Positions 1 through 29,354 are shown, counted from the first letter of the stretch. The stretch: 64,000 nucleotides of DNA from Clostridiales bacterium (GCA_003523255.1 DPGH01000012.1:118759-182758), one strand, 5' to 3'. Notes: generated from the letters alone by a model not told the origin. Program-made: numbers and translations.

Positions 1-1
1 G

Positions 2-433
2 ATAGATAACCCTAAGGTAAAGTTGATTGTTTTTGGCTCGGTTGTTAACGAACTGAAACCTAAAATAGAAGAACTAACGCATGGATGTGATAACGTTTTA
101 TATGTCGGGTGGATTAGTTCGGAACAGTCTTACGATTATTTTGAGGCAGCAGACTTAGTTGTTTTTCCTGGGAGACACTCTGTTTTTTGGGAGCAGGTAG
201 TTGGACAGGGTAAACCAATGATTGTAAAATATTGGGATGGCACTACCCATGTTGATTTAGGTGGAAACGTGGAGTTTTTATATAACGATAGTGTTGAAGA
301 AATAGAAAAGAAATTATTGTGTGTAATGCAGCCTACCGTTATTTCAAAAATGAAAGAAGTGGCTGAGCAAGAGGGAATGCAGATGTTTTCTTATAAAGAA
401 ATAGCTAGACGAAGTATTGAATTAAATAGGTAA
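2..433 (+). CDS. Glycosyltransferase family 1 (GT4-like), C-terminal fragment; reading frame is open to the window edge
   Basis: Frame open from nt 2 with no upstream stop. Translation ([21 protein letters not shown]...) resembles the C-terminal lobe of GT1 sugar transferases. AT-rich codon usage matches the neighbouring polysaccharide genes. Confidence 0.55.
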
Positions 434-438
434 ATGAT

Positions 439-1623
439 ATGATGATAGCAGTAGCGGGTACTGGGTATGTTGGTTTGTCGATGGCGATATTGTTATCGCA
501 ACATAATGAGGTAAAAGCCGTAGACATTGTTTCCGAAAAAGTCGAAATGATTAATGCGAGAAAATCGCCCATAGTAGACAAAGAAATACAGGAATATTTA
601 TCAACTAAAGATTTAAATTTGATTGCTACGACTAATGGCGATTTCGCATATAAAGACGCAGAATATGTAATAATAGCCGCACCTACTAATTACGATCCTG
701 AAAAAAACCATTTTGACACATCGGCTGTGGAAAGCGTTATAGAACAAGTTCTTCGCGTGAACAAAAATGCGATAATGGTCATAAAGTCTACTGTTCCTGT
801 TGGCTATACGGAAAGCGTTCGTAAAAAATACGGTTGTGAAAATATAATTTTTAGTCCGGAATTTTTGCGTGAAGGACACGCTCTTTACGATAATCTATAT
901 CCAAGCCGAATAATAGTCGGCTATCCGAAAAGCGATGAAAGACTTTTAAACGTGGCTGAAAAGTTTGCAGGTCTTTTAAAAAACGGTGCGATAAAACAAG
1001 ATATAAACGTATTATACGTAGGTTTAACCGAGGCAGAAGCGATTAAATTATTTGCAAATACGTATCTTGCTTTAAGGGTTGCTTATTTTAATGAGTTAGA
1101 TACTTATGCTGAGTTGAAAGGGTTAGATGCTAAGTCTATAATTGACGGTGTATCTTTAGATCCAAGAATAGGAGATTTTTATAATAACCCGTCTTTCGGT
1201 TATGGGGGCTACTGCTTACCAAAAGATACAAAGCAATTAATGGCTAATTATGCAAATGTACCACAAAATTTGATTTCGGCAATAGTTGAATCAAACTGCA
1301 CAAGAAAAGATTTTATAGCAGATCAGATAATAAAAAAACATCCTAGGAAAGTTGGAATTTATAGACTTACGATGAAGGCAAACAGTGATAATTTTCGACA
1401 TTCGTCCATACAAGGTGTAATGAAACGAATTAAAGCAAAAGGGATAGAAGTTATTATTTATGAGCCGACTATGAAAGAAAGCAGTTTTTTTGATAGTCAA
1501 GTTATAAAAAGTTTGGAAGAATTTAAAAAACAATCTGATATAATCATAACGAATCGTTATTCGAATGAACTTAATGATGTGTCAGAAAAGATTTATACAC
1601 GTGATCTGTTTTTTAGAGATTAA
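439..1623 (+). CDS. ugd: UDP-glucose 6-dehydrogenase
   Basis: N-terminal Rossmann motif [11 protein letters not shown] and the catalytic-Cys motif [14 protein letters not shown] typical of the UDP-glucose/GDP-mannose dehydrogenase family. Length is 394 aa. Confidence 0.9.
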
Positions 1624-1639
1624 CCGTTAGGACGTAAAA

Positions 1640-2890
1640 ATGAAATTATTTAAAACATGGTTTCCGTATTTTATTATTTTAGGGCCAGTATCTTTTACAT
1701 TTATTACAACAATAATTGGTTACAACTATGCTGAGCATGATGCAGTATACAAATATTACAATATCGTAATAGCATTAATGTGCTATCTATATGTATTTTA
1801 TTTATCTGTCAGGAATAACTATAAGTTTAATGTTTATGGCCTTATACTTGCATTAGTTTTCGTTTCAGGCTATTTTTTTTCTTATCTTATTTTAAAAAAT
1901 AAATCAACTATTGCTTATGACATGTGGACATACTATATAATTTGGGCATTGCCCGCTTATTTATTAGGGATGGTGAGTTCACGTGATAAACTTTTCTTAA
2001 ATAATATGTGGAAATCCATTGACCTGTTTATGCTGGTAATTACAATTATAGTTGTAATAAATGGGGTTTATTTTTTGAAAAACGGTAGACAAACATTCTC
2101 AACATCTGGAACAATAACATATCAGACAATATCTTACTTGTCGGCTTTCGCTTTTGGCTTAAATTATTTTTTGTTAATTGATACAGAAAATACAAATAGA
2201 GCAGTTTTTTTCAGGAAGAATATATTCTATAAGATATTTAGCATATTGCTTTTATTTTTACAAGGTGTTTCTCTTGTGGTGACAGGAGGTAGAGGCGGGT
2301 TTATATTACTTGTAGTATATTTTTTTTATATAACTTTTTTTCAAAAAGCGGAAAAACGTAATTATTTTAAAATAGTAGTTGTGTTAGCGATTATTGCATT
2401 TGTTACAATCATTTTTACAAGTAATAATAAGGCAATTGACATGGGTCTGCAAAGAATATTTTCGTACATTACAGACGAAGGTATTGACATGAGTGAAACA
2501 TCCTATAGAGATGTAAATTATAAAGTAGCGTTAGACTTGATATCTCAAAGACCTGCGTTTGGGTATGGTATATATGGATTGTTTATGTACACTTTTTATC
2601 CGCACAATATAGTTTTAGAAATATTACTTGGCGGTGGAATTTGTTATCTTATTTTATTTGTTATTTTTTTAGTGTTTATATCAAAAAAATTTATAAGAAT
2701 TAAGAATTTAAATAAAAATTCCTTATTGATTTTTTTGATATTACTGTATGACTTAGTAATGCTTATGTTCAGTGGAACATACCTGAGTGCTACAGCATTG
2801 TGGTTTTTTATTGGATTTGTAATAAATTACAGGACTAAAAAAAACATTAATTATGCCACTAATTTGTTATCGGTAAAATACAATGTGTAA
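1640..2890 (+). CDS. Polytopic membrane protein, O-antigen/capsule repeat-unit polymerase (Wzy-like) or O-antigen ligase family
   Basis: 416 aa, about 10-12 hydrophobic segments and a large loop region. It sits between ugd and glycosyltransferases in a Wzx/Wzy-type locus. No recognisable catalytic motif, so the assignment rests on topology and context. Confidence 0.55.
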   Translation: MKLFKTWFPYFIILGPVSFTFITTIIGYNYAEHDAVYKYYNIVIALMCYLYVFYLSVRNNYKFNVYGLILALVFVSGYFFSYLILKNKSTIAYDMWTYYIIWALPAYLLGMVSSRDKLFLNNMWKSIDLFMLVITIIVVINGVYFLKNGRQTFSTSGTITYQTISYLSAFAFGLNYFLLIDTENTNRAVFFRKNIFYKIFSILLLFLQGVSLVVTGGRGGFILLVVYFFYITFFQKAEKRNYFKIVVVLAIIAFVTIIFTSNNKAIDMGLQRIFSYITDEGIDMSETSYRDVNYKVALDLISQRPAFGYGIYGLFMYTFYPHNIVLEILLGGGICYLILFVIFLVFISKKFIRIKNLNKNSLLIFLILLYDLVMLMFSGTYLSATALWFFIGFVINYRTKKNINYATNLLSVKYNV

Positions 2891-4001
2891 TCAAGTTTAT
2901 TTTTTTATATCATTATTGTTAAAGGCAAATGGTAAAGATTTCAGTATAGGTGGGGTTCAAACATATTGTTTTGAACTATCAAAATTATTCATGAAAAATC
3001 AGATGGCTGTTACGGTTTATCAATTTGCCGAGAAAGATTTTGATATCTTTTATGAGGGAATTCATGTAATCGGGAAAAAAGTTCCCATAAATAATTATAA
3101 TAAAGCAAAAAAAATGCTCTATAAAAAATTTTTAGAAGAAGCTAAACCTGATAAAATTAACGATATCTTGCTTTTTGCTACCGATTATATGATTGTCAAG
3201 AATGATTTTGTAAAGTCGATTGCAATTCAGCACGGAGTGGCATGGGATATTACTTCATATAAAAAAGAAGCAGACTTAAGTAATATTTTTAAAATTATTT
3301 ATAACTCTATTGGTTCAATAAAAAAGTATTTACGATTTAAGAAAGTAAACAACATTGTTGCCGTAGATTATAATTTTTTAAACTGGTATAGAACACAGGT
3401 TAAAAATATAAACAACAAAATCGTGGTGATACCTAACTTTGTCGATAGAGTAAAATATCGTGAATCGATAAATAGTAACGTTGTAAAAATTATTTTTGCG
3501 CGTAGATTTGTGCCTTATCGCGGAACTCGTTTGTTTGTAAACGTAATAGGAAAACTTCTTCAAGCGTATGACAATATACAGATAACTATTGCCGGCGAAG
3601 GACCTGATGAAGAGTACATCAAAGAAAATATAGGTGAAAATAAAAATGTGTTTATTACGCGCTTTTCTCCCGATGAAAGTTTTAATGTACATTTACAACA
3701 CGATATAGCGGTAATACCAACCCTTGGCTCTGAGGGTACATCTCTTTCTCTGTTAGAGGCTATGGGGGCAGGTTGCGCAGTCGTTTGTACAAATGTCGGA
3801 GGAATGACAAATATAGTTTTAGATCGGTTTAACGGCATCATGATTGCGCCTACGGAAGAAGAACTGGTTAACGCCTTAAAAGAACTTATAGATGATCGCG
3901 AATTGAGAAATGCCTTATCTCAAAGGGCGGTAGAAACTGTTCAATCATCTTTTAATAAAAAAAGATGGGAAAATGAATGGATGAAAATAGTTGCAAAATA
4001 A
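2883..4001 (+). CDS. Glycosyltransferase family 1 (GT4-type retaining sugar transferase)
   Basis: C-terminal EX7E-type motif EGTSLSLLEAMGAGCAVVCTNVGG and FARRFVPYRGTRL. Overlaps the previous gene by 8 nt (operon). Confidence 0.85.
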   Translation: MCNQVYFFISLLLKANGKDFSIGGVQTYCFELSKLFMKNQMAVTVYQFAEKDFDIFYEGIHVIGKKVPINNYNKAKKMLYKKFLEEAKPDKINDILLFATDYMIVKNDFVKSIAIQHGVAWDITSYKKEADLSNIFKIIYNSIGSIKKYLRFKKVNNIVAVDYNFLNWYRTQVKNINNKIVVIPNFVDRVKYRESINSNVVKIIFARRFVPYRGTRLFVNVIGKLLQAYDNIQITIAGEGPDEEYIKENIGENKNVFITRFSPDESFNVHLQHDIAVIPTLGSEGTSLSLLEAMGAGCAVVCTNVGGMTNIVLDRFNGIMIAPTEEELVNALKELIDDRELRNALSQRAVETVQSSFNKKRWENEWMKIVAK

Positions 4002-5010
4002 AACAAAGGATAAATATAGTATGAAATTATTAACAATTTCGATTGCGGCATATAAGGCGGAAGAGTATATAGTTAAAGCGTTAGAATCGATTATAGGATC
4101 AAAATATATAGATAAGATACAGGTTGTGGTTGTTAATGATGGGTCAAAGGATGGGACTGTAAACATAGTTAAAAAGTATATAGACAGATACCCGACCATT
4201 GTTGACTTAATAGACAAAGAAAATGGAGGCTATGGGTCTACTATTAATGCTTCGCTACAAATAGCAAAAGGTCGATATTATAAGCTTTTGGATGCTGATG
4301 ATTGGTTTAATACCTCGGAGTTGGACAAATTAGTGGAGGCATTGGAAAGCACGAATGCCGATATTGTCGTTTCTGATTATTGCCGCTATTATGAGCGGAA
4401 TGGACTTACAGAGAATATAAAAACTTTAAAAGTTGAGTATGATCATATTTATGATGTTAAAGAATTAAATACATTTACCATAAATCCAGCGCTTACAGTA
4501 AAGACCCAAATAATACAGGGGCAGATTAAAATTACCGAAAAATGCTTATATACGGACGTTGAGTTCTGTGCTAAAGCGATTATAAAAGCTAATAATTTTG
4601 TTTATTTCCCCTATTGTGTTTACTGTTATCGTATTGGCAGGGAAGGACAGAGTGTTTCTTCGGAAGGCAGGATGAAACATATAGCAGAGCATGAATATAT
4701 CATTAAAGAATTATACGAAACTGCATTTGATAAAATTCAAAATGAAGAATCTAAAAACAGTATTTACAGATTGTTTAGCGAGCATATTAAATATTATGCA
4801 TTTTATGCAAAACCGAATAAAGATAATTTAAACAGGTTCATTTCTTTTTGTAAATATTTGAAAAATAACGCTCCCGAAGCTGTTAATTATTTAAATAAGT
4901 GGAGTAAAAAATGTTATAAGCATCCAAAAATATATTATCTTCCTACATGCATTTTTATCAGGTGTGGGCATAAAGTAAAAAAGTTGTTCAGAAAAAAGGA
5001 CTTGAAATGA
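3991..5010 (+). CDS. Glycosyltransferase family 2
   Basis: N-terminal GT-A signature LTISIAAYKAEEYIVKALESI...VVVNDGSKDGT and the DxD motif LDADDWF. Confidence 0.85.
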   Translation: MQNKTKDKYSMKLLTISIAAYKAEEYIVKALESIIGSKYIDKIQVVVVNDGSKDGTVNIVKKYIDRYPTIVDLIDKENGGYGSTINASLQIAKGRYYKLLDADDWFNTSELDKLVEALESTNADIVVSDYCRYYERNGLTENIKTLKVEYDHIYDVKELNTFTINPALTVKTQIIQGQIKITEKCLYTDVEFCAKAIIKANNFVYFPYCVYCYRIGREGQSVSSEGRMKHIAEHEYIIKELYETAFDKIQNEESKNSIYRLFSEHIKYYAFYAKPNKDNLNRFISFCKYLKNNAPEAVNYLNKWSKKCYKHPKIYYLPTCIFIRCGHKVKKLFRKKDLK

Positions 5011-6488
5011 TATACAATAATTCTATAAAAAAGAATTATATTTTACAAAGCATTCTTACAATAGCAAATGTCCTAATCCCTTTGGTAACGTACCCGTACA
5101 TAACAAGGGTTTTGTTACCAGTCGGCACAGGTAAAGTCGCTTTCGCAAATTCGGTTGTTGCATATTTTATTATGTTTGCGCAATTAGGTATTCCTACTTA
5201 TGCGGTAAAGGAGTGCGCTGCGGTCAGGGAAGATGAACAGGCGTTATCAACTAAAGTTAAAGAGTTGATGATTATTTGTGTCTGCACTTCACTTTTTTCT
5301 TGTCTGTGTTTGTATGTTTGTGTGTTGTTTGTTCAAAAACTATATGCGGAAAAATGGTTGTATCTGATTTTGAGTTGTTCCATTTTTTTACAGGCAATAG
5401 GGATCGAATGGCTGTTTTCGGCAATTGAACAATATTCATATATAACTAAGAGATCGTTATTATTTAAATTGATTTCTATGATAGCGATTTTTATCTTGAT
5501 ACGCAAAGAAACAGATTATGTTCTTTATGCGGGCATATCTGTATTTTCTACGTCTGCTTCTTATATATTAAACTTTTTCTATTCTAAAAAGTTTATAAAT
5601 TTAAAGAAGACCCAAAAGTTGAATTGTAAAAAGCATTTTAAAGGGATATTGATGTTTTTTGCAATGACATGCGCGTCAACAATATATCTGAATCTTGATT
5701 CGGTAATGTTGGGTTTTATTGTCGGGGATACTGAAGTGGGGTTATATAGTACTGCGGTAAAAGTCAGGACTTTACTATTAACATTGATAACTTCACTGGG
5801 AACAGTTGTTTTGCCGCGAGCATCATATTATATTGCGCAAGATAAAATGGAAGAATTTTGGGGGTTGATAAAAAAGTCGGCTGAATTCGTGTTTTTGCTA
5901 TCAATTCCGTTGACGATCTATTTTATTATATTTGCGAGGCCGAGTATTTTATTGCTTGCAGGGAATGATTTTTATGGTTCAATACTGCCTATGCAAATAA
6001 TTATGCCAACGCTATTTTTAGTGGGGGCTTCAAATTTGACCGGTATTCAGATATTGATACCGCTTGGAAAAGGAAAAATCGTTTTAATATCAGAAATTGT
6101 CGGTGCGATAATTGATTTTGTGTTAAATTTATTTTTGATAAAAAAGTATGGGGCAGTCGGTGCGGCTTTTACAACTTTATTAGCGGAATTATTTGTTTTA
6201 TTGGTTCAATTGGTTGCATTAAGGAAAGAATTAAAGAAAATTTTTTACAATATAAAAATAATAAAATATTTAAGTGCGATAGTTTTGGCTATTATAGGTT
6301 CGTATTGGATACAATTTTTTATTACAAATAATTTTGTATTATTAGTTGTAACTGCGTTTTCTTTTTTTATTATTTATTATGTGGTATTGTTGATAATTAA
6401 AGAAACTATGGCGACGCAAATATTTAGGTTGTTTATATCAATTATGAAGAAAATTTTTAAAAGGAAACAAGAAAATGAAAAAGGTTAA
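5007..6488 (+). CDS. wzx: Polysaccharide repeat-unit flippase (Wzx, MOP/PST family)
   Basis: 493 aa, about 12-14 TM segments. N-terminal region is typical of polysaccharide biosynthesis protein (PST) flippases. 4-nt overlap with the upstream GT2. Confidence 0.75.
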   Translation: MIYNNSIKKNYILQSILTIANVLIPLVTYPYITRVLLPVGTGKVAFANSVVAYFIMFAQLGIPTYAVKECAAVREDEQALSTKVKELMIICVCTSLFSCLCLYVCVLFVQKLYAEKWLYLILSCSIFLQAIGIEWLFSAIEQYSYITKRSLLFKLISMIAIFILIRKETDYVLYAGISVFSTSASYILNFFYSKKFINLKKTQKLNCKKHFKGILMFFAMTCASTIYLNLDSVMLGFIVGDTEVGLYSTAVKVRTLLLTLITSLGTVVLPRASYYIAQDKMEEFWGLIKKSAEFVFLLSIPLTIYFIIFARPSILLLAGNDFYGSILPMQIIMPTLFLVGASNLTGIQILIPLGKGKIVLISEIVGAIIDFVLNLFLIKKYGAVGAAFTTLLAELFVLLVQLVALRKELKKIFYNIKIIKYLSAIVLAIIGSYWIQFFITNNFVLLVVTAFSFFIIYYVVLLIIKETMATQIFRLFISIMKKIFKRKQENEKG

Positions 6489-7725
6489 ATATTTAATTTT
6501 AGGCGCAGGAATAAGTGGTTTGACATTCGCGACACTTAAAAGACAAGAAGATTATTTAATTATAGAAAAGAGTAATAAAGCAGGCGGCTTATGTAAATCG
6601 TTTTATGAAAATGGATATGTGTGGGATGTGGCAGGACATTTTTTCCATTTTCATTCTGAAGAAACAAAAAAGTATTATATAGAATTGATGAATGGGGTAG
6701 AACAAAAAAATGTAAAAAAATGTGCAAAAGTATATTATTCCGAAAAAATGATGGATGCACCTTTTCAATTTAATATTCATCAATTAAAAACCAAAGAGTT
6801 TATTGAATGTTTGACTGATTTGTATTTTGCGCATAGTGGTGATAGTGCGGAAAATTTCGAAGACTATGTCAAATGTAAATATGGTAACGGAATAGCCAAT
6901 AAGTTTTTGATACCTTATAACGAAAAATTATATGCTTGTAAAATGAACGAATTGGAAAAAAATTCTATGGGGGCATTTTTACCAAAACTAGATTTTTGTT
7001 CTTTAATGAATTATTATCGCATGGATAATAATTTGAATGGAAAGACTTATAATGATTTTTTTATGTATCCCGTAAACGGATGTATGGAAGTGATCAATTC
7101 CTTGATGAAAAAACTTGATAAAGAAAAAATAAAACTAAGCGAAAAGGTGATAGAAATTGACGTAGACAAAAAAGAAGTCGTAACGGATAGAGAGATTTAT
7201 AATTATGAATACTTGATAAGTTCTGTATCTTTGTCAACTTTTATTGAATGTGAGAAGGGAAAGAAAGAAAATATTTTAAATTGGAATAAGGTTCTGGTAT
7301 TGAATATCGGTTTTGACAGACCGAGTATAGACAAAAATGTTTCGTGGATTTATTTCCCGGGGAGTGAAATATTTTATAGAGTTGGTTTCTATAACAATAT
7401 AGCCGAGACTCAAAAGTTAAGCGTATATGTAGAGATAGGCTACAGTAAGGAAGAAGAAATAGACATTGAATATGCTTTTAAACAAACAATCAATGATCTT
7501 AAAAAAGTAGGGATAATCGGAGATCATAATGTGGATTCATGGCAACCGTATATCATCGATCCTGGGTATGTACATATTACTACTGAATGTACATCGATGA
7601 TCAATAATTATATGTCAAAAATGAAAGAAAAAAACGTGTATATGATTGGTCGATATGCTCGGTGGGAATATTCAGCAATGGATGATTCTTTTGAACAGGC
7701 TTTTAAACTAAACAAAGAGATTTAA
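6475..7725 (+). CDS. FAD-dependent oxidoreductase, UDP-galactopyranose mutase (Glf)-like
   Basis: N-terminal dinucleotide-binding motif LILGAGISGLTFA. C-terminal MIGRYARWEYSAMDDSFEQA resembles the Glf C-terminus (GRLGTYRYLDMD...). At 416 aa it is somewhat longer than canonical Glf. Confidence 0.5.
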   Translation: MKKVKYLILGAGISGLTFATLKRQEDYLIIEKSNKAGGLCKSFYENGYVWDVAGHFFHFHSEETKKYYIELMNGVEQKNVKKCAKVYYSEKMMDAPFQFNIHQLKTKEFIECLTDLYFAHSGDSAENFEDYVKCKYGNGIANKFLIPYNEKLYACKMNELEKNSMGAFLPKLDFCSLMNYYRMDNNLNGKTYNDFFMYPVNGCMEVINSLMKKLDKEKIKLSEKVIEIDVDKKEVVTDREIYNYEYLISSVSLSTFIECEKGKKENILNWNKVLVLNIGFDRPSIDKNVSWIYFPGSEIFYRVGFYNNIAETQKLSVYVEIGYSKEEEIDIEYAFKQTINDLKKVGIIGDHNVDSWQPYIIDPGYVHITTECTSMINNYMSKMKEKNVYMIGRYARWEYSAMDDSFEQAFKLNKEI

Positions 7726-7728
7726 ATT

Positions 7729-8820
7729 ATGAAAACTATAATGCTTGTATTCGGGACTAGACCCGAAGCGATAAAAATGTGTCCGCTCGTAAACGAGTTA
7801 AAGACGAGAAGAGGAATTAAAACGGTTGTATGCGTAAGCGGACAGCATAGACAAATGCTCGATCAGGTACTTGATGTATTCAATGTCGTTCCCGATTATG
7901 ATTTGTCTATAATGAAAGAAAAACAAACTTTGTTTGACATTACTACCAGTATATTGGACAAAATAAAAACCGTGCTCGAAGACGTAAAACCGGATGTGGT
8001 TCTTGTACACGGAGATACTTCTACGACGTTTGTAACGGCGCTTGCCTGTTTTTATTTGCAAATTCCTGTGGGACATGTCGAGGCGGGGCTCCGGACATAT
8101 AATATTTATTCGCCGTATCCGGAAGAGTTTAATCGGCAAGCGGTGAGCATTATATCAAAATATAATTTTGCTCCTACCGAACTTTCCAAAGAAAATTTAA
8201 TCCGAGAGGGTAAAGATCCTTCTTCGATTTATGTTACTGGAAATACTGCAATCGATGCTTTGAAAACGACGGTTAAACCCTGCTATACGCATTCTGATTT
8301 GGAATGGGCAAAGGATAGTAAACTTATAATTATAACAGCACATCGTAGAGAGAATCTCGGAGAGCCGATGCATCATATGTTTAGAGCCATAAGACGCATA
8401 ATGGATGAGCATAAAGATGTAAAAGCAATTTATCCGATTCATATGAACCCGATTGTAAGAAGTGAAGCGGAAGAGGAATTGAGCGGTTGTGATAGAATAC
8501 GAATAATAGAACCGCTCGAAGTTGTTGACTTTCATAATTTTCTTGCAAAAAGTTATATGATACTTACGGATAGCGGCGGTATTCAAGAAGAAGCGCCATC
8601 TCTTGGTAAACCGGTTCTTGTTATGAGAGATACGACTGAACGCCCGGAGGGAATTGCCGCCGGAACTTTAAAGTTAGTGGGAACAGACGAAGAAACGATT
8701 TATAAAAACTTTAAGTTGTTACTTGAGGATAAAACCGAGTACGATAAAATGGCACAGGCGAGTAATCCGTATGGCGACGGTTTTGCATGTAAAAGAATTG
8801 CGGATATTATAGGAGAGTAA
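7729..8820 (+). CDS. wecB: UDP-N-acetylglucosamine 2-epimerase (non-hydrolysing)
   Basis: MLVFGTRPEAIKMCPLV, HVEAGLRTYN and a DSGGIQEEAPSLGKPVLVMRDTTERPE block characteristic of WecB/MnaA. It is the last gene of the AT-rich segment. Confidence 0.9.
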   Translation: MKTIMLVFGTRPEAIKMCPLVNELKTRRGIKTVVCVSGQHRQMLDQVLDVFNVVPDYDLSIMKEKQTLFDITTSILDKIKTVLEDVKPDVVLVHGDTSTTFVTALACFYLQIPVGHVEAGLRTYNIYSPYPEEFNRQAVSIISKYNFAPTELSKENLIREGKDPSSIYVTGNTAIDALKTTVKPCYTHSDLEWAKDSKLIIITAHRRENLGEPMHHMFRAIRRIMDEHKDVKAIYPIHMNPIVRSEAEEELSGCDRIRIIEPLEVVDFHNFLAKSYMILTDSGGIQEEAPSLGKPVLVMRDTTERPEGIAAGTLKLVGTDEETIYKNFKLLLEDKTEYDKMAQASNPYGDGFACKRIADIIGE

Positions 8821-8823
8821 TTT

Positions 8824-9870
8824 ATGAATATTTTTAACAACAAAACTTTGATGATTACAGGGGGAACGGGGAGTTTCGGTAACGCCGTTCTCAATCGGTT
8901 TTTAAAAACCGATATCGGAGAAATTCGCATTTTTTCTCGCGACGAGAAAAAACAAGACGATATGCGCCACGAGTTTCAGGAAAGAATGCCCGAAGTTGCG
9001 GATAAAATAAAATTTTATATAGGCGACGTGCGCGACATTAACTCCGTCAGGGGTGCGATGCACGGTGTTGATTATATTTTTCATGCCGCCGCGCTTAAAC
9101 AGGTGCCGAGTTGTGAATTTTTCCCGATGGAAGCGGTCCGTACCAACGTTATCGGCACGGACAACGTTTTAACGGCGGCAATTGAGGAAGGCGTAAAGTC
9201 GGTTATATGTCTTTCCACGGACAAGGCGGCGTATCCTATTAACGCGATGGGGATGAGCAAAGCGGTAGAAGAAAAAATCGCCGTGGCGAAATCTCGCAAT
9301 AGCGGCAATACCAAAATATGCTGCACGCGTTACGGTAACGTAATGTGTTCGCGCGGGTCTGTTATTCCGCTGTGGATAGACCAGATAAAACACGGACAGC
9401 CCGTAACGCTTACAGAGCCCACGATGACGCGTTTTATAATGTCTTTGGATGAAGCGGTTGATTTAGTTCTTTTTGCGTTTGAACACGGCAAAAACGGCGA
9501 TTTGCTTATACAAAAAGCCCCCGCATGCACTATCCGTACGCAAGCGGAAGCGGTATGCGAACTTTTCGGCGGCAATAAAGAAGAGATAAAGGTGATAGGC
9601 ATACGCCACGGCGAAAAAATGTATGAAACGCTTTTAACCAAAGAAGAATGTGCAAAAGCTGTGGATATGGGTAATTTTTATCGAGTGCCGGCGGACAACC
9701 GCGACTTAAACTATGATAAGTATTTTAAGGACGGAAACGACAAGGCCGTTACCATAACCGAGTTCAATTCAAACAATACCAAAAGGCTTAACGTAGAAGA
9801 AACGAAAGCAAAAATCGCTTCGCTTGCCTACATACAGGACGAACTGAAAAAGTTACGTTCCGAAAAATAG
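8824..9870 (+). CDS. fnlA: UDP-N-acetylglucosamine 4,6-dehydratase/5-epimerase (FnlA/CapE/WbjB)
   Basis: N-terminus LMITGGTGSFGNAVLNRFL is almost identical in pattern to S. aureus Cap5E. Length 348 aa. This is the first gene of the higher-GC segment. Confidence 0.9.
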   Translation: MNIFNNKTLMITGGTGSFGNAVLNRFLKTDIGEIRIFSRDEKKQDDMRHEFQERMPEVADKIKFYIGDVRDINSVRGAMHGVDYIFHAAALKQVPSCEFFPMEAVRTNVIGTDNVLTAAIEEGVKSVICLSTDKAAYPINAMGMSKAVEEKIAVAKSRNSGNTKICCTRYGNVMCSRGSVIPLWIDQIKHGQPVTLTEPTMTRFIMSLDEAVDLVLFAFEHGKNGDLLIQKAPACTIRTQAEAVCELFGGNKEEIKVIGIRHGEKMYETLLTKEECAKAVDMGNFYRVPADNRDLNYDKYFKDGNDKAVTITEFNSNNTKRLNVEETKAKIASLAYIQDELKKLRSEK

Positions 9871-9874
9871 AGTT

Positions 9875-11071
9875 ATGAATATACTTGTAACCGGCGCGAA
9901 GGGTTTTGTCGGTAAAAACCTGTGTTACGCGTTAAAAAACGTAAAAGACGGCAAGGATAAGACCCGCCATAATCTTATCGTAAGCGAAATATACGAGTAC
10001 GATATCGACTCAAACGCGGCAGATTTGGCGTTATATTGTCAAAAAGCCGATTTCGTGTTTAACCTTGCGGGCGTAAATCGCCCGAAAGACCCTGAGGAGT
10101 TCAAAAAAGGCAATTTCGGTTTTGCGTCTACCCTTTTAAACGAGCTTGAAAAAGCAGGGAACAAGTGCCCCGTTATGCTCGCTTCGTCCATTCAGGCAAC
10201 GCTTATCGGCAGGTACGACGGCGAATACGGCAGAAGCAAAAAGGCGGGGGAACAATTGTTTTTCGACTATGCGGAAAGAACGGGCGCAAAAGTACTTGTA
10301 TACAGGTTTCCTAACCTGTTCGGCAAGTGGTGCCGCCCGAATTACAACAGCGCGGTCGCGACTTTTTGTTATAACGTCGCTAACGACTTACCTATAACCG
10401 TAAACGATCGTTCGACCGAACTCGAACTGCTTTACATAGACGATTTGGTTTGCGAAATGTTTGACGCGCTCGAAAATAAAGCGCATCGCGCCGAGTTTGA
10501 CGGATTAAAAACGGTAATAACCGAAAAAGGCAAATATTGCGCCGTACCCGTTACGCATAGGGTAACTCTCGGTGAAATAGCGGATTTATTGACGGAGTTT
10601 TCAAGACAACCGCAAACGCTTGTAATGCCGGAAATACCCGAAGGGTCTTTTGCGAAAAAATTGTATTCTACTTATTTGTCGTATTTGCCAAAAGAAAAAG
10701 TAACGTTTTCGCTAAAAACGAACTCGGACGCGCGCGGGAGTTTTACCGAACTGTTAAAAACCGAAAAATGCGGACAAATTTCCGTAAACGTTTCCGACCC
10801 GAAGATAACAAAAGGCAAGCACTGGCACAACAGTAAGTGGGAGTTGTTTATAGTCGTTTCCGGGCACGGACTGATACGCGAGCGCAAGATAGGCACGGAC
10901 GAGGTTATGGAGTTCGAGGTTTCGGGAGATAAAATAGAAGCCGTGCATATGCTCCCGGGGTATACGCACGAAATAATAAATTTAAGCGATACGGAAAAGT
11001 TGGTAACGGTAATGTGGGCGAACGAACAATTCGACGCCGCCCACCCCGATACTTATTTTGAGGAGATATAA
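9875..11071 (+). CDS. fnlB: UDP-2-acetamido-2,6-dideoxy-L-talose/L-QuiNAc reductase-epimerase with C-terminal cupin (FnlB/CapF/WbjC)
   Basis: N-terminus MNILVTGAKGFVGKNL (cf. Cap5F MNIVITGAKGFVGKNL), an SDR domain plus a C-terminal cupin-like region. 398 aa. Confidence 0.9.
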   Translation: MNILVTGAKGFVGKNLCYALKNVKDGKDKTRHNLIVSEIYEYDIDSNAADLALYCQKADFVFNLAGVNRPKDPEEFKKGNFGFASTLLNELEKAGNKCPVMLASSIQATLIGRYDGEYGRSKKAGEQLFFDYAERTGAKVLVYRFPNLFGKWCRPNYNSAVATFCYNVANDLPITVNDRSTELELLYIDDLVCEMFDALENKAHRAEFDGLKTVITEKGKYCAVPVTHRVTLGEIADLLTEFSRQPQTLVMPEIPEGSFAKKLYSTYLSYLPKEKVTFSLKTNSDARGSFTELLKTEKCGQISVNVSDPKITKGKHWHNSKWELFIVVSGHGLIRERKIGTDEVMEFEVSGDKIEAVHMLPGYTHEIINLSDTEKLVTVMWANEQFDAAHPDTYFEEI

Positions 11072-11073
11072 AA

Positions 11074-12252
11074 ATGAAAACAGATTATTCCGATATAAAG
11101 TTTAAAGGCGACGGGAGATTGAAACTACTTATAATCGTCGGCACCCGTCCCGAAATTATAAGGCTCGCCGCGGTTATAACCAAGTGCAGAAAGTATTTCG
11201 ACTGCGTACTGGCGCATACGGGGCAAAATTACGATTACAACTTAAACGGCGTGTTTTTTAAAGACCTTAAACTTGCCGACCCCGAAGTATATATGAACGC
11301 CGTGGGCGACGATTTGGGCGCGACGGTAGGCAACATAATAAACTGCTCGTATAAACTCATAAACGATATTAAGCCGGACGCGCTTTTAATTCTCGGCGAC
11401 ACTAATTCTTGCTTATCCGCCATTGCAGCGAAGCGTTTACACGTTCCGATATTCCATATGGAAGCGGGTAACAGGTGTAAAGACGAGTGTTTGCCGGAGG
11501 AAACCAACCGCCGTATAGTTGATATAATTTCCGACGTAAACATGGCTTATTCCGAACATGCGAGGCGGTACCTTGCGGAGTGCAGTTTACCGAAAGAAAG
11601 AACTTTCGTTACGGGTTCACCCATGGCGGAGGTGTTACGCGCGAATCTTACCGATATAGAAAAATCGGACGTACTGAAAAGGTTGAATTTACAACCGAAA
11701 AAATACATTTTGTTGTCTGCGCACCGCGAGGAGAATATCGATACCGAAAAGAACTTTACCGCGCTTTTTACGGCGATAAACGGTCTTGCGCAGAAATACG
11801 ATATGCCGATACTATATTCGTGCCATCCGCGCTCCAAAAAAAGACTTGACGAAAGCGGGTTTAAACTCGACGAGCGCGTTATAAGACACGAGCCGCTCGG
11901 TTTTCACGATTACAACAATTTGCAAATGAACGCTTTCGCGGTCGTTTCGGACAGCGGTACCTTGCCCGAAGAAAGCAGTTTTTACACGAGCATAGGCAAA
12001 CCGTTTCCCGCGGTGTGTATAAGGACTAGTACGGAACGTCCCGAGGCTTTGGATAAGGCATGCTTCGTTTTAGCGGGTATAGACGGCAACGGACTTATCC
12101 AGGCTGTTGATACCGCCGTAAGCATGAATGAAAACGGCGACGACGGCATACCCGTTCCCGATTACGTTGAAGAAAACGTGTCGACCAAAGTCGTTAAAAT
12201 AATACAGTCTTATACTTCTACCGTCAATAAAATGGTGTGGCGTAAGTTTTAA
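11074..12252 (+). CDS. fnlC: UDP-N-acetyl-L-talosamine/UDP-L-FucNAc 2-epimerase (FnlC/CapG/WbjD)
   Basis: LLIIVGTRPEIIRLAAVI, ILGDTNSCLSA and HMEAGNR motifs of the WecB-like 2-epimerase family. Positioned third in a conserved fnlABC arrangement. Confidence 0.9.
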   Translation: MKTDYSDIKFKGDGRLKLLIIVGTRPEIIRLAAVITKCRKYFDCVLAHTGQNYDYNLNGVFFKDLKLADPEVYMNAVGDDLGATVGNIINCSYKLINDIKPDALLILGDTNSCLSAIAAKRLHVPIFHMEAGNRCKDECLPEETNRRIVDIISDVNMAYSEHARRYLAECSLPKERTFVTGSPMAEVLRANLTDIEKSDVLKRLNLQPKKYILLSAHREENIDTEKNFTALFTAINGLAQKYDMPILYSCHPRSKKRLDESGFKLDERVIRHEPLGFHDYNNLQMNAFAVVSDSGTLPEESSFYTSIGKPFPAVCIRTSTERPEALDKACFVLAGIDGNGLIQAVDTAVSMNENGDDGIPVPDYVEENVSTKVVKIIQSYTSTVNKMVWRKF

Positions 12253-12281
12253 CGATTTTTGCATATTTGCTTTTATAAAAA

Positions 12282-13370
12282 ATGAACAAAACACTAAACT
12301 ATTTTTGCGAAAACTATACTTCTAACACGCTTGCGGGAACTTCCGTGCAGTCGTACTTTACGCCGCAGGGAAAGTTAGCGGCATACGCGTTTTATAAGCC
12401 GTTCTTGGCGGGCGAATTCGATTATTCGTTTTTGTTTACTAATACGGTAGACAGCACTTATTCGGACGGGAGCCTGACAAAGTGCAACGACCCTTGCGGA
12501 GAATGGAAGATATTCGATTGCAAGGTTATAATATGTAACGACGTAAACGCCGCGCTTAACGGTAGTTACGATAAGAGCAAGGAATTCGTTTTGACCTTTC
12601 GCGGTAGCCCTGAAAAAAAGGTTTTACCGAACGAAACTTTTTATACGGATTCCGCAAAACTTAACGTTACCGAAAACGAGTACATATGTATTAAAACGGT
12701 TTTCGAGGGGAAAAATATTCCTTGCCATATAGAAAATAAAATACTTACCTATATCGACGACGGTAACGGCGTTAAAGCGGATAAATACGTTCCGCTCCCT
12801 TCTATGATAGGCGTAAAAAGACACGTTAAAAAGAAAATCGCTTTTTGGGGCGACAGCATAACGCAGGGTATAGGTTGTAAAGAAGATTCTTACGCGCATT
12901 ATACCGCTGTCTGCGCCGAAATACTCGGCAACGAGTATTCGTTCTGGAACCTCGGTATAGGTTTCGGCAGGGCGGCGGACGCGGCGACAAACGGCGCGTG
13001 GGCGGATAAAGTTAAAACTTGCGATACGGTTATTGTTTGTTTCGGCGTGAACGACCTTTATAAAATAGGCGATTACGAAAAAATAAAAACGAGTTACGAT
13101 AGAATAATCGGGATACTGAAAGGGAAAAGGGTTATTTTTCAAACCATACCGCCGTTCGATTATCCCGATAACCTTTGCGAGATTTATTTAAAACTTAACG
13201 ACTATATTCGCAAAGAACTTTCAAAAAAAGTTTACGCCGTGTTTGACGAAACGCCTTATTTATCGGATAGCGAAAATCCTTTTGCCGCAAAGTACGGCGG
13301 GCATCCTGACGAAATCGGTTGCAAACTTTGGGGAGAGCGTTTAGCGGACTTTTTAAGGGACAAAATTTAA
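12282..13370 (+). CDS. SGNH/GDSL hydrolase-family protein with a ~180-aa N-terminal domain of unknown function (candidate polysaccharide/sugar O-acetyl esterase or transferase)
   Basis: Block I IAFWGDSITQGIG (GDS(L)), a GxND-like VCFGVNDL and block V GGHPDEIG (DxxH) in the C-terminal half. No signal peptide or TM. N-terminal half is Cys-rich (CNDPCGEWKIFDC) and I do not recognise it. Confidence 0.7.
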   Translation: MNKTLNYFCENYTSNTLAGTSVQSYFTPQGKLAAYAFYKPFLAGEFDYSFLFTNTVDSTYSDGSLTKCNDPCGEWKIFDCKVIICNDVNAALNGSYDKSKEFVLTFRGSPEKKVLPNETFYTDSAKLNVTENEYICIKTVFEGKNIPCHIENKILTYIDDGNGVKADKYVPLPSMIGVKRHVKKKIAFWGDSITQGIGCKEDSYAHYTAVCAEILGNEYSFWNLGIGFGRAADAATNGAWADKVKTCDTVIVCFGVNDLYKIGDYEKIKTSYDRIIGILKGKRVIFQTIPPFDYPDNLCEIYLKLNDYIRKELSKKVYAVFDETPYLSDSENPFAAKYGGHPDEIGCKLWGERLADFLRDKI

Positions 13371-13385
13371 TAAACGACGATTAAA

Positions 13386-13428
13386 AAGCGAACTTTGTTT
13401 TTACGACAGAGTTCGTTTTTTTTTTGCT
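13386..13428 (+). terminator. Rho-independent terminator closing the polysaccharide operon
   Basis: Stem CGAACTTTG/CAGAGTTCG (one mismatch), a 9-nt loop, followed by T9 (13416-13424). Confidence 0.7.
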
Positions 13429-13596
13429 TTTCGGCTTTTATGTTTAAAACCGACGGGTTTTGCTTACCGCCGTTATTTACCGCGATAAAAACGTTGTTAA
13501 ATTTATAAAAACAATCATAACGCTTTAAAAAGACACAAGACATATAGGGTAAACGGTAGTAAAATTTAATCGTAAAAGTATACTTGCGGGTAAATT

Positions 13597-13640
13597 TTTA
13601 GTCTTAATTTATAACTAAAATCTCCTATTAGGAGAATTAC
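13597..13640. promoter_or_regulatory. Two adjacent short inverted repeats (TTTTAGT-N11-ACTAAAA and TCTCCTA/TTAGGAGA palindrome) in the AT-rich intergenic region
   Basis: Perfect 7-nt arms read directly from the sequence. Candidate regulator binding sites upstream of the 14093 operon. Confidence 0.3.
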
Positions 13641-13775
13641 AAAGTAAATTTTACTCTTAGTTCGGGGTTGAAACGGTAAAAAAGTTATTGTATAATTAGA
13701 TAAACAAAGAATAAACGAAAATTATAAAAAAAACGAGCCATAATACGTATAAACGGTAAAAATAAAATTAAAAAA

Positions 13776-13815
13776 TATCAGATATATGTATTTTGTGCCA
13801 TTTTGTATCAGATAT
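13776..13815. promoter_or_regulatory. Direct repeat TATCAGATAT x2 (13776-13785 and 13806-13815) with internal ATTTTGT x2
   Basis: Exact 10-nt direct repeat spaced 30 nt, about 150 nt upstream of the small ORF and operon start. Plausible response-regulator-type tandem site or promoter-proximal element. Confidence 0.3.
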
Positions 13816-13959
13816 TATATTGCGGGAGTAAAATGCTATTATTAGATAGCGAAATATAGTTTAACCGCCGCGAGAGGGCGCTTTAAAGGCTTGAGATAAA
13901 AAAACAATACGGCAACGCCGTTTTATATATAAATATATTTTATAAGGAGTGTGTTTTTG

Positions 13960-14082
13960 ATGAAAAAACTATACGAACAACCGACAATCAAAATGACAGT
14001 TTTGCCTACGTGCGACGTGTTAAGCATATCGCCGACTTTCGACGATAAGAACTATTTGAAAGAAGAATGGTTCGATTTATAA
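13960..14082 (+). CDS. Unannotated small ORF (40 aa): MKKLYEQPTIKMTVLPTCDVLSISPTFDDKNYLKEEWFDL
   Basis: AAGGAG 10 nt upstream of the ATG. Ends 10 nt before the RBS of the 1006-aa secreted protein gene. Below the 60-aa cutoff of the ORF track. No homology assignable from memory. Confidence 0.4.
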   Translation: MKKLYEQPTIKMTVLPTCDVLSISPTFDDKNYLKEEWFDL

Positions 14083-14092
14083 GGGGGAAATT

Positions 14093-17113: not shown

Positions 17114-17130
17114 AGTAAAAACTTTAAGCG

Positions 17131-17162
17131 GCGGTAAGCGGGCATAGCCACCCGCTTACCGC
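17131..17162 (+). other. Perfect 12-bp stem-loop (GCGGTAAGCGGG / CCCGCTTACCGC, 8-nt loop) between the secreted protein gene and the SBP gene
   Basis: Read directly. No downstream U-run, so more likely a partial terminator, RNA-processing or stability element giving differential expression within the operon. Confidence 0.45.
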
Positions 17163-17198
17163 ACCTTTAAGATAAAAAACAAATTCGGAGGAATTATA

Positions 17199-19866: not shown

Positions 19867-19878
19867 GAGGAGCAAAAA

Positions 19879-20826: not shown

Positions 20827-20841
20827 ACCAAAAGGAGATGA

Positions 20842-25885: not shown

Positions 25886-25891
25886 AAAAAC

Positions 25892-25912
25892 GGGGTCGTA
25901 AAGGGCGACCCC
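25892..25912 (+). other. Short GC hairpin (GGGGTCG...CGACCCC) immediately before the RBS of the 25925 gene, no U-run
   Basis: Read directly. Possible intra-operon attenuator or stabiliser. Confidence 0.35.
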
Positions 25913-25924
25913 TAAGGAGGAAGT

Positions 25925-29299: not shown

Positions 29300-29354
29300 C
29301 CATTCCGTGCGGCGCATAAAGCGTCCGCATTGTGAAGATCATCAATGCTCTTTT

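Follow-up and report, generated by a model that had tools for sequence, protein, structure and literature searches.

The first 13370 positions of the 64,000-nucleotide stretch analysed here (the window) belong to an ordinary gene cluster for a surface polysaccharide in an uncultured Clostridia species from the human gut. Taken jointly, the results make it likely that the cluster is one Wzx/Wzy-type operon with the usual gene-class pattern of GC content, an old, inherited GC step and a history of module shuffling. The host would be a spore-forming, uncultured species of ≈ 45% GC. GC segmentation of polysaccharide clusters has long been described, and the locus, which shows a pattern of the textbook type, carries little weight as a discovery. 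It does document a family of related, module-shuffled loci of gut Clostridia, probably for a glycan containing L-FucNAc and ManNAc, and this family bears on how surface antigens vary from strain to strain in the gut.

The operon, with all genes on the same strand, would span ≈ 17.4 kb, of which window positions 1-13370 form the 3′ three-quarters. Genes upstream of position 1 were read from L095, the same contig as the window. The gene order is GT4, GT4, polysaccharide deacetylase, GT1, ugd, wzy, GT, GT2, wzx, flavin oxidoreductase, wecB, fnlA, fnlB, fnlC and GDSL. The tight or overlapping spacing of these genes and a terminator-like element at 13383-13431 (+ strand; a 17-pair stem followed by a T-run, the best-scoring match of the scan) point to a single transcription unit. 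Five co-oriented glycosyltransferase genes are present, two GT4 and one GT1 upstream in L095 and gt1 and gt2 in the window.

All genes described below are on the + strand. The window opens within the GT1-family glycosyltransferase gene (3′ end at 1-433; the full gene, 389 aa, starts 736 bp upstream, as seen in L095), which has 32% GC, belongs to the AT-rich core and is 85-87% identical at the amino acid level to its L099 and L100 orthologues. It is followed by a ugd-like nucleotide-sugar dehydrogenase gene (439-1623; three UDPG_MGDP_dh domains by Pfam; 34% GC) and a wzy-type repeat-unit polymerase gene (1640-2890; Pfam Wzy_C, 49 bits against a cut-off of 31.7). The latter has the lowest GC content in the locus (27.6%), and its closest non-self relatives are only ≈ 60% identical. 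The GT4/GT1-family glycosyltransferase gene gt1 (2883-4001; Pfam) is common to all four related loci, with 74% amino acid identity to L099, L100 and L103, and starts the block that is colinear with L103, the alignment beginning at 2931-2969. The GT2-family gene gt2 (4021-5010; Pfam Glycos_transf_2; 329 aa as called) begins at ATG 4021 according to the gene callers and at TTG 3991 in the longest ORF; it is 81-82% identical to its counterparts in L100 and L103. Identities to the same two loci were 86-87% for the wzx flippase gene (5007-6488; Pfam Polysacc_synt, 113 bits; 31% GC) and 79-83% for fad, which encodes a flavin-dependent oxidoreductase of the amine-oxidase family (6475-7725; Pfam Amino_oxidase and NAD_binding_8). 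The remaining genes are wecB/mnaA for a non-hydrolysing UDP-GlcNAc 2-epimerase (7729-8820; TIGR00236, 508 bits against a cut-off of 210), a fnlA/capE-like UDP-GlcNAc 4,6-dehydratase/5-epimerase gene (8824-9870; Pfam Polysacc_synt_2 and Polysacc_syn_2C; 45% GC), a fnlB/capF-like reductase gene (9875-11071; Pfam Epimerase and a C-terminal domain), a fnlC/capG-like 2-epimerase gene (11074-12252; Pfam Epimerase_2) and, last in the operon, a gene for a GDSL/SGNH-family protein (12282-13370; Pfam Lipase_GDSL_2; 42.5% GC). The gene calls (ugd, wzy, GT1, GT2, wzx, flavin oxidoreductase, wecB, fnlA/B/C-like and GDSL) agree with both Pfam and NCBIfam.

The model scores limit how closely several of the enzymes can be named. 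For the ugd-like protein the best NCBIfam match was the UDP-glucose 6-dehydrogenase model (607 bits against an equivalog cut-off of 757); the TIGR03026 nucleotide-sugar dehydrogenase subfamily cut-off was exceeded, and WecC models gave only 75-101 bits. The product is thus probably a UDP-glucose 6-dehydrogenase. The fad product matched the UDP-GALP_mutase model with 41 bits (cut-off 304) over the N-terminus only; it appears weakly UDP-galactopyranose-mutase-like, an assignment at the family level only. The FnlA-like protein matched TIGR04130 (FnlA) best, with 504 bits, under the equivalog cut-off of 730 (PseB, 309 bits). The FnlB-like protein scored 358 bits with NF047837 (WbcJ reductase; cut-off 500), and the FnlC-like protein scored 210.2 bits with TIGR00236, the wecB model (cut-off 210.15). 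Across 80 loci the fnlA/B/C set was mostly arranged A-B-C, some loci having another order or lacking fnlB. From the gene content, we infer that a repeat-unit glycan with ManNAc, L-FucNAc and probably GlcA would be built and exported. An initiating phosphoglycosyl transferase gene (Bac_transf/WecA-type) was absent between adh_short and the terminator in the window species, and could lie elsewhere in the genome; a Bac_transf gene opens each of the related loci L099, L100 and L103. No chain-length or export regulator (Wzz/CpsCD type) was found among the Pfam families of the locus genes. Because the locus of the window species contains neither a priming phosphoglycosyl transferase nor a chain-length regulator, the pathway assignment is incomplete.

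The compositional contrast within the locus is strong. An AT-rich island of 31.2% GC extends from about − 1810, that is ≈ 1.8 kb upstream of the window, to 7750-7970; its in-window part was set at 1-7969 by likelihood segmentation with BIC, per-gene GC and GC3. GC content was 31.4% at 1-7728 and 32.4% at 1-8820, compared with 45.5% both in fnlABC (8824-12252) and at 14093-64000. No 7.7-kb background window fell below 44.1% GC, so the contrast is far beyond chance. The first-pass annotation had described an AT-rich cassette at 1-8820 with ≈ 30% GC, followed by ≈ 50% GC: the strong island is confirmed, but it runs from upstream of the window to within or near wecB, and the measured levels are ≈ 31% and ≈ 45.5%. 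For the AT-rich genes, fnlABC and ten housekeeping genes, GC3 was 0.25-0.31, 0.50-0.53 and 0.48-0.54, and a CAI-like index gave 0.54-0.61, 0.68-0.70 and 0.69-0.73, respectively; the AT-rich genes thus differ from both other sets, and the composition of fnlABC matches that of the housekeeping genes.

The transition itself is less abrupt than the single step at the wecB stop and fnlA ATG that had been described. wecB is intermediate in composition (39.7% GC, GC3 0.35) and ranks at the 0.2th percentile among equally sized background windows. Measured over 500 bp on either side, GC content rose from 32.0 to 40.0% at 7728/7729 and from 39.6 to 45.8% at 8820/8824. The rise therefore consists of two steps of similar size across wecB, with no single sharp step at 8820. 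Under maximum-likelihood segmentation with three or more segments (five were best by BIC), the island ends on its right side at 7750-7970, within wecB or at its start. The island is preceded in L095 by two glycosyltransferase genes of 40-42% GC. In operon order, the per-gene values are 42 and 40%; 31, 32, 34, 28, 32, 32, 31 and 30%; 40% for wecB; and 45, 46, 46 and 42.5%. GC segmentation as in O-antigen clusters is present: wzx, wzy and glycosyltransferase genes are lowest, the sugar-precursor genes are intermediate to genome-typical, and GC rises towards the edges. This is the usual gene-class pattern, with a very AT-rich wzy/wzx/glycosyltransferase core, intermediate wecB and 5′ GT4 genes, and genome-typical fnlABC.

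The closest relatives of the locus span the transition. The segment gt1-gt2-wzx-fad-wecB-(3 nt)-fnlA-fnlB-fnlC gave one unbroken 9.3-kb alignment with L103-L106 at 78.9% identity, from window position 2931/2969 to 12253 and across both GC steps. L103-L106 belong to another species, in which the locus lies at a different chromosomal site (polA-coaE ... rplU-rpmA); per-gene GC is 30-33, 39 and 45-46%, and the wecB-fnlA spacer is likewise 3 nt. They are the joint colinear nearest relative of gt1 through fad, wecB and fnlABC. Distances at four-fold sites between the window and L103 were 1.02 for gt2, 0.66 for wzx, 1.06 for fad, 1.35 for wecB, 1.26 for fnlA and 1.06 for both fnlB and fnlC. The wzx value is lower than those of the fnl genes (1.06-1.26) and than the pooled value of 1.28 for housekeeping genes, for which the nearest known species served as reference; this suggests a possibly more recent exchange of some of the AT-rich block. 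The data on the segment shared with L103 fit vertical descent as well as a transfer of the entire block.

Related junctions were seen in two further loci. In L004, wecB and fnlA are again separated by 3 nt with a step from 41 to 49.5% GC, and in L099 wecB (91% amino acid identity) adjoins fnlA (88%) with a step from 38 to 46%. Among the genes of the related loci, conservation is highest for wecB, at 89-91% amino acid and 80-84% DNA identity (L099, L100 and L103). In four hosts of 43-50% GC, gene-by-gene GC is 26-28% for wzy, 30-31% for wzx, 30-31% for fad, 38-40% for wecB and 45-46% for fnlA; the core ranges from 26 to 34% across the four species' loci, which differ by ≈ 21-23% in DNA sequence. 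The GC step across wecB/fnlA would thus be inherited, having been present in a common ancestor with related loci of at least two other species. It would then predate the window genome, and no cassette replacement there would have created it.

The locus is mosaic, both compositionally and evolutionarily, in several modules. The first-pass annotation was right about the mosaic; the modules are more numerous than the two it had proposed, and there is no fusion seam at the wecB stop in the window genome. Strain differences in the related species are confined to the wzy-proximal 5′ part, which is swapped between the strains L103 and L104, while the 3′ part including fnlABC is 98% identical. This agrees with the predicted variable 5′ part and conserved fnlABC, but gt1-gt2-wzx-fad, although AT-rich, lie inside the conserved block and outside the strain-variable part. 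L100 lacks fnlABC, and its homology both to the window and to L103 breaks off precisely with the wecB stop codon; recombination or an indel has therefore affected the wecB/fnlA boundary on at least one occasion in the family. Colinear homology between the window and L103 ends at 12253, the end of fnlC. The GDSL gene had no tblastn match in 80 fnlA loci, and its position in L099, L100 and L103 is taken by other genes, with an NTP_transf_5 gene in its place. The locus family appears to evolve by shuffling of whole-gene modules at gene boundaries, gt1 and wecB acting as conserved linkers. The modules would be the wzy-proximal cassette, a segment that is either gt2-wzx-fad or another wzx set, an fnlABC block that may be missing, and a tail of GDSL or NTP_transf_5. 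Within the window species, the exact wzy, wecB and fnlA proteins were linked on the same six contigs. A conspecific strain, 99.3% identical downstream, carried an identical fnlA over the part seen, and fnlABC-GDSL was present on every long contig seen around the downstream permease (a small sample). Neither replacement nor presence/absence polymorphism was found among these six contigs and the long contigs, again a small sample.

Why the core is AT-rich allows several answers. It had been proposed that the segment from wzy to wecB (1-8820) was recently acquired from an AT-rich donor and that the wecB stop marks its fusion to an fnlABC block either native or of separate origin. The 14-point GC difference and the difference in codon usage are real, a module boundary can fall at the wecB stop, as L100 shows, and distant Wzy homologues (≈ 35% identity) include those of low-GC Firmicutes (Clostridium perfringens, Staphylococcus and Peribacillus). 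We nevertheless consider a recent replacement very improbable. L103-L106 align unbroken from ≈ 2950 to 12253 and are the nearest neighbour of both halves, the very result that the first-pass annotation had named beforehand as refuting its model; spacer and per-gene GC are the same, and synonymous divergence is comparable on the two sides of the junction. L004 and L099 show the wecB-fnlA junction with its GC step as well, the composition of wecB is intermediate, and segmentation fits the boundary best at 7750-7970. Integrase and transposase domains were absent from the Pfam results for the locus genes, the boundary repeats of the island were short, chance-level ones only, and both halves were present on all sampled contigs of the window species. 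No AT-rich donor was identified: the close relatives of the AT-rich genes all lie in similar AT-rich islands inside genomes of 43-50% GC. Nor could fnlABC be demonstrated to be native, because fnlA has relatives at 80-88% amino acid identity in two phyla, among both Clostridia and Bacteroidales MAGs. The case shows that neighbouring genes can differ by a sharp GC step of old, inherited origin, and such a step alone should not be taken for a recent transfer junction.

We favour an old low-GC ancestry of the core with slow amelioration, probably together with gene-class-specific pressure. That the core was imported from a much lower-GC lineage before the loci of the four species diverged, the step being a fossil of slow amelioration, is the standard reading for O-antigen clusters (PMC3715488), and we regard it as a serious possibility, somewhat short of probable. 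Three-taxon polarised substitutions at third positions of conserved codons in the AT-rich genes showed a W→S excess, with ratios of 1.97, 2.85 and 1.63 (window, L099 and L100) and of 1.85, 2.43 and 1.55 (window, L103 and L100). Stationary simulations, which capture the parsimony artefact, predicted only 1.3-1.65; P was about 0.005-0.05 for the window and ≤ 0.007 for L099, and the fnlABC control gave 0.6-1.3. The excess over the artefact is modest and model-dependent, however, and that of L100 is not significant. Moreover, GC4 is still 0.32-0.42 against 0.61-0.65 in the fnl genes in both lineages after ≈ 1 substitution per four-fold site, the raw net gain is at most ≈ 5 GC3 points against a rough neutral expectation of ≈ 11, and the search for a donor lineage was as unsuccessful for an ancient import as for a recent one. 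The low GC of wzx, wzy and glycosyltransferase genes might instead be a gene-class-specific equilibrium rather than a donor signature, if selection favoured low or attenuated expression, regulation of AT-rich DNA or certain recombination properties, or if such genes were constantly exchanged within an AT-rich pool; we hold this explanation only tentatively. It accords with the almost identical gene-by-gene GC in four hosts despite their divergence, and with a low-GC trough that is general near fnlABC in many taxa: a lower-GC 1-kb trough was found within 10 kb in all 48 fnlA loci from other species (mean minimum 33%, mean median 42%), and the GC of fnlA itself tracked local GC (r = 0.85). Reeves et al. 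likewise point to wzx and wzy as the genes of lowest GC in many polysaccharide clusters, an observation that "needs explanation" (PMC3715488). On the other hand, the W→S excess suggests that the genes are not fully at equilibrium, and the pattern would also arise if the genes had ameliorated in parallel in hosts of similar GC. It seems rather unlikely to us that some active process keeps the wzy/wzx/glycosyltransferase core AT-rich, with amelioration weak at most, so that its composition would not be the waning signature of a donor. If it were true, loci of this family from gut Clostridia would offer a workable natural system in which to ask the old question of why genes for polysaccharide processing are AT-rich across so many bacteria. 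The conserved gene-by-gene GC in four hosts provides a small data set on donor signature versus maintenance in wzx and wzy.

The gene content resembles that of known capsule loci. In Staphylococcus aureus cap5/cap8, a single operon, the conserved sugar-precursor genes lie outside and the type-specific transferases, polymerase and flippase are central; capE/F/G correspond to FnlA/B/C, capP encodes a 2-epimerase and capO a dehydrogenase, and the repeat unit contains L-FucNAc and a ManNAc derivative. In contrast, the window dehydrogenase is Ugd-like rather than a UDP-ManNAc dehydrogenase, regulator and priming genes of the capA-D type are absent, and a deacetylase, a flavin oxidoreductase and a GDSL protein are additional. 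The cps loci of Streptococcus pneumoniae serotypes 4 and 12F are similar in gene content, being Wzy-dependent Firmicute loci with their own mnaA and fnlA-C. In the serotype 4 locus, mnaA-fnlA-fnlB-fnlC lie together at the 3′ end. The serotype 4 capsule uses MnaA, a WecB homologue, and FnlA-C for ManNAc and L-FucNAc, which are made from UDP-GlcNAc (PMC4838161). The wzg-wzh-wzd-wze start and the dexB/aliA flanks of pneumococcal cps are all missing from the window locus.

The O-antigen (rfb) clusters of Salmonella enterica and Escherichia coli share with the window locus a segmental GC content that rises towards the cluster edges; in both, moreover, recombination proceeds by modules and the central genes are strain-specific (Reeves et al. 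2013, PMC3715488). The window locus differs in lacking galF/gnd flanks and a priming transferase, and its product is not an LPS O antigen, because the host is a Gram-positive-type gut Clostridia species. In Salmonella, glycosyltransferase, wzx and wzy genes have 28-37% GC in a genome of 51-52%, and those of the sugar pathways range from intermediate values to the genome average (PMC3715488). The GC contrast is smaller in the window locus, since the background here is only ≈ 45% GC.

The probable polysaccharide operon occupies window positions 1-13370, where it consists of 12 ORFs, all on the forward strand, with tight or overlapping spacing. Comparison with Pfam and NCBIfam models identified the 3′ end of a GT1 glycosyltransferase gene (1-433), a Ugd-like nucleotide-sugar dehydrogenase (439-1623), a Wzy_C polymerase (1640-2890), a GT4/GT1 transferase (gt1, 2883-4001), a GT2 transferase (gt2, 4021-5010), a Wzx flippase (5007-6488), a flavin amine-oxidase-family protein (fad, 6475-7725) and WecB (7729-8820; 508 bits versus a cut-off of 210). 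These are followed by genes for FnlA-, FnlB- and FnlC-like enzymes (8824-12252), named from their best-scoring models although FnlA and FnlB fell below the strict equivalog cut-offs, and by a GDSL/SGNH protein gene (12282-13370) with a strong terminator-like hairpin (13383-13431, forward strand) at its 3′ side. We rejected the assignment of the dehydrogenase as a UDP-ManNAc dehydrogenase similar to S. aureus CapO, since the Ugd model scored 607 bits and the WecC models 75-101 bits. Assignment of fad as a UDP-galactopyranose mutase was likewise unsupported (41 bits versus a cut-off of 304, covering the N-terminal Rossmann part only).

The same contig from another assembly (L095, a human-gut metagenome assembly) extends further upstream and places the start of the operon ≈ 4 kb 5′ of the window, where it adjoins uxuA and a gene for a short-chain dehydrogenase. 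This extension adds two GT4 genes, a gene for a polysaccharide deacetylase and the 5′ part of the GT1 gene. The first GT4 gene adjoins the short-chain dehydrogenase gene at L095:4056-4329 (window about -4305 to -4032). No priming phosphoglycosyl transferase or chain-length regulator was found among the genes of this species' locus in L095 and the window.

The first-pass annotation had described an AT-rich cassette (1-8820) fused at the wecB stop codon to a GC-typical fnlABC block. A large compositional island is indeed present. The GC content was 31.4% in 1-7728, 39.7% in wecB and 45.5% in both fnlABC (8824-12252) and positions 14093-64000; no 7.7-kb background segment fell below 44.1%. The levels of ∼ 30% and 50% originally stated are thus better given as ∼ 31% and 45.5%. 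Codon usage followed the same course: GC3 and a CAI-like index, computed against housekeeping genes, were 0.25-0.31 and 0.54-0.61 for the AT-rich genes, 0.35 and 0.64 for wecB, 0.50-0.53 and 0.68-0.70 for fnlABC, and 0.48-0.54 and 0.69-0.73 for ten housekeeping genes. Instead of a single sharp step at 8820, there were two steps of similar size, one at each end of wecB (32.0 to 40.0% at 7728/7729 and 39.6 to 45.8% at 8820/8824). Likelihood segmentation with at least three segments (five being best by BIC) placed the right edge of the island at 7750-7970, not at 8820. The island begins ∼ 1.8 kb 5′ of the window, and since its 5′ border consists of glycosyltransferase genes of 40-42% GC, the GC profile is graded on both sides. 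Scanning the GC boundaries for repeats and for remnants of IS elements yielded only chance-level AT-rich matches, and a promoter scan gave hits at the level of shuffled sequence.

Three related loci in other species (L099, L100 and L103), at three other chromosomal sites, were reached through matches to Wzy (∼ 60% identity) and to the flavin protein (79-83%). Each of them opens with a Bac_transf gene, unlike the locus studied here. L103, together with L104-L106, represents strains of one species (including NCBI assembly GCA_964317065.1) in which the locus lies between polA-coaE and rplU-rpmA. With blastn, these loci and window positions 2931/2969-12253 formed one ungapped-scale alignment (9.3 kb, 78.9% identity). 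It extends over gt1-gt2-wzx-fad-wecB-fnlA-fnlB-fnlC and passes through both GC steps. The two sides have the same 3-nt spacer between fad and wecB and again between wecB and fnlA, and the GC contents of the individual genes are nearly equal. In L103, GC content and amino acid identity to the window were 33% and 74% for gt1, 33% and 81% for gt2, 30% and 87% for wzx, 31% and 83% for fad, 39% and 89% for wecB, 46% and 87% for fnlA, 45% and 81% for fnlB, and 45% and 89% for fnlC. Four-fold-site distances between the two loci were 1.02 (gt2), 0.66 (wzx) and 1.06 (fad) on one side, and 1.35 (wecB), 1.26 (fnlA), 1.06 (fnlB) and 1.06 (fnlC) on the other. The colinear alignment and these distances indicate that both sides of the step have one nearest neighbour and are of roughly equal age, which is the very outcome that the first-pass annotation had named as speaking against its proposal. 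The proposal that two blocks were sharply fused at the wecB stop is not upheld. The same arrangement recurs in two further organisms: L004 has the wecB TAA codon, 3 nt and the fnlA ATG with a GC step from 41 to 49.5%, and in L099 wecB (91% amino acid identity) is followed by fnlA (88%) with a step from 38 to 46%.

Comparison of the window, L099, L100 and L103 by whole-gene modules revealed a mosaic. The 5′ GT4 pair (∼ 69-72% DNA identity), gt1 and wecB are common to all four loci, wecB being the most conserved at the DNA level (80-84%). The wzy-proximal cassette, deacetylase-GT1-(ugd)-wzy, is common to the window, L099 and L100 (∼ 77.5%), and L103-L106 carry unrelated genes in its place. The gt2-wzx-fad module is present in the window, L100 and L103; L099 has instead another wzx, a pyruvyl transferase gene and an FrhB-like gene. 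The window and L103 share fnlABC; the order in L099 is fnlA-NTP_transf_5-fnlB′-fnlC, with an fnlB only 59.5% identical, and L100 lacks fnlABC, its homology to the window and L103 ending exactly at the wecB stop. The tail gene is GDSL in the window and an unrelated NTP_transf_5 gene in the other loci. One strain of the L103 species has an extra 327-aa gene between fnlB and fnlC (L105:14616-15599), which, together with the NTP_transf_5 gene of L099, indicates that the fnlABC block also takes insertions at gene boundaries. The 3′ end of wecB is thus a module boundary, one among several in this family; the window and its closest relative have no breakpoint there.

The comparison of strains suggested in the first-pass annotation was possible for the species of L103. 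Starting at the 5′ end of gt1 and continuing past fnlC, L103 and L104 share 98.3% identity. Their gene content differs only in the interval that separates the GT4 genes from gt1; in one of the two, only a 77-aa remnant is left of the second GT4 gene. The strain-variable cassette is accordingly the wzy-proximal part, equivalent to roughly -1.8 to +2.95 kb of the window. The expectation that the 5′ part varies and fnlABC is constant was borne out in part: gt1-gt2-wzx-fad, although AT-rich, fall within the constant block alongside fnlABC. The earlier description of a mosaic locus with a variable 5′ cassette stands in modified form.

Within the species of the window, exact-protein look-ups found its wzy, wecB and fnlA products on the same six contigs. 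FnlA was identical over the 316 residues seen in a strain 99.3% identical downstream, and all long contigs seen around the downstream permease carried fnlABC-GDSL. In this small sampling no alternative cassette was seen, and a metagenome scan for strains with other cassettes, with the downstream 1006-aa gene as anchor, gave no confirmed hit. The window's flanks were absent from all 80 fnlA loci examined. A genome-collection scan with FnlA was uninformative on conspecific strains, as the window's own species was not among the matches listed (best 88%).

Among the matches listed, FnlA relatives of 80-88% amino acid identity came from MAGs of both Clostridia and Bacteroidales/Prevotellaceae. Over 48 fnlA loci, the GC content of fnlA tracked local GC (r = 0.85), and a lower-GC trough lay nearby in every one (mean 1-kb minimum of 33% versus a mean median of 42%). 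Given this wide spread and the tracking of GC, fnlABC is a widely shared, well-ameliorated module, whose host-like GC is no proof of native origin. For the AT-rich genes, all close relatives that could be placed lie in similar AT-rich islands inside genomes of 43-50% GC; named low-GC Firmicutes appeared among the Wzy matches at ∼ 35% identity only. We polarised changes at third positions of conserved codons by three-taxon parsimony, with stationary simulations as a gauge of artefact. The AT-rich genes showed W-to-S excess ratios of 1.6-2.9 (parsimony artefact alone, 1.3-1.65), nominally significant in the window and L099 lineages but not in L100; fnlABC, treated in the same way, gave 0.6-1.3. 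The excess is a hint, and suggestive only, that these genes have been ameliorating slowly from ancestors still richer in AT. The raw net change amounted to ∼ 5 GC3 points or less, and with roughly one substitution accumulated per four-fold site the AT-rich genes still have GC4 of 0.32-0.42, so that an old AT-rich origin and maintained AT-richness are both compatible with the data.

How the block came to reside in different hosts allows two explanations. The four loci lie in four different chromosomal contexts, and no genes common to the window were found in the L099, L100 and L103 flanks. Transfer of the block within the clade is possible, as is vertical descent with relocation. Between the window and the nearest known species by ArgS (L107), amino acid identities were 79% for ArgS, 90% for TypA, 85% for YchF and 68% for Rho, and the pooled four-fold distance of housekeeping genes was 1.28. 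This is about equal to the wecB/fnlABC distances from L103 and somewhat above that of wzx (0.66); the near equality leaves room for both transfer and descent. The conclusion on the junction is unchanged under either.

The locus is real but ordinary, a fresh example of a known locus type with a known composition pattern. A WecB homologue is paired with FnlA-C in S. aureus cap5/cap8. Such a set also supplies ManNAc and L-FucNAc for the pneumococcal serotype 4 and 12F capsules (PMC4838161). The GC pattern matches that described for Salmonella O-antigen clusters, which contain segments of differing GC: glycosyltransferase, wzx and wzy genes are at 28-37%, and sugar-pathway genes are at intermediate or genome-average GC, lower nearer the serotype-specific genes (PMC3715488). 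The authors take the pattern as a sign of transfer from ancestors of lower GC; the particularly low GC that wzx/wzy have in many clusters, they add, "needs explanation" (PMC3715488). What is mildly new here is only that gene-by-gene GC values are stable across four hosts.

Downstream of the operon, the intergenic region 13371-14092 (30.6% GC), which separates it from the next operon, includes the terminator and an 11/12 promoter-like site (13668-13696). A 40-aa ORF (13960-14082), just 5′ of the 1006-aa gene, is kept in strains at 99% and 95.5% identity; the window has one residue different from the three other strains checked, K in place of E at position 11. The region 14093-29299 looks like a glycan-utilisation locus, with two ABC permeases, a DUF4838/GH67N-like protein, a 579-aa gene without Pfam match that may encode a solute-binding protein, and a 1124-aa protein with Big_2 and hyaluronate-lyase N-beta domains. 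A C-terminal segment of ∼ 1 kb common to the 1006-aa and 1124-aa proteins (16141-17105 and 28316-29291; ∼ 85% DNA identity) is an internal duplication. The junction 3′ of the 1124-aa gene (∼ 29300-29740; L085:20699-, L087:15823-) varies between strains, the next gene being ychF in the window, a DUF87 protein gene in the 99.3% strain (L085) and an LRR_5 protein gene in the 95.5% strain (L087).

Housekeeping genes of a Firmicute (ychF, argS, rho, typA, dnaB, mcsB and clpC) lie elsewhere in the window. At 34622-36986, rho is directly followed by an N6/N4 DNA methyltransferase gene that overlaps its 3′ end. The pair is kept in L107 (L107:13675-16006; 68% amino acid identity), and no restriction enzyme gene was seen beside it. 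The glycan-utilisation and polysaccharide loci, on the far side of ychF, are without counterpart in L107. There, a 270-aa gene, NUDIX and typA adjoin ychF-argS (L107:5526-16006); in the window, rho and the methylase gene intervene and the distance is ∼ 12 kb (29738-44535). The closest non-self ArgS among 5.8 billion proteins, 79% identical, is from a "Clostridiales/Clostridia bacterium" MAG, and L107, the nearest relative by ArgS, carries gerA-type spore germination genes. The longest argS ORF (30942-32705) begins at TTG; its homologues are 560 aa long and cover 96%, which places the true start probably ∼ 25 codons downstream.
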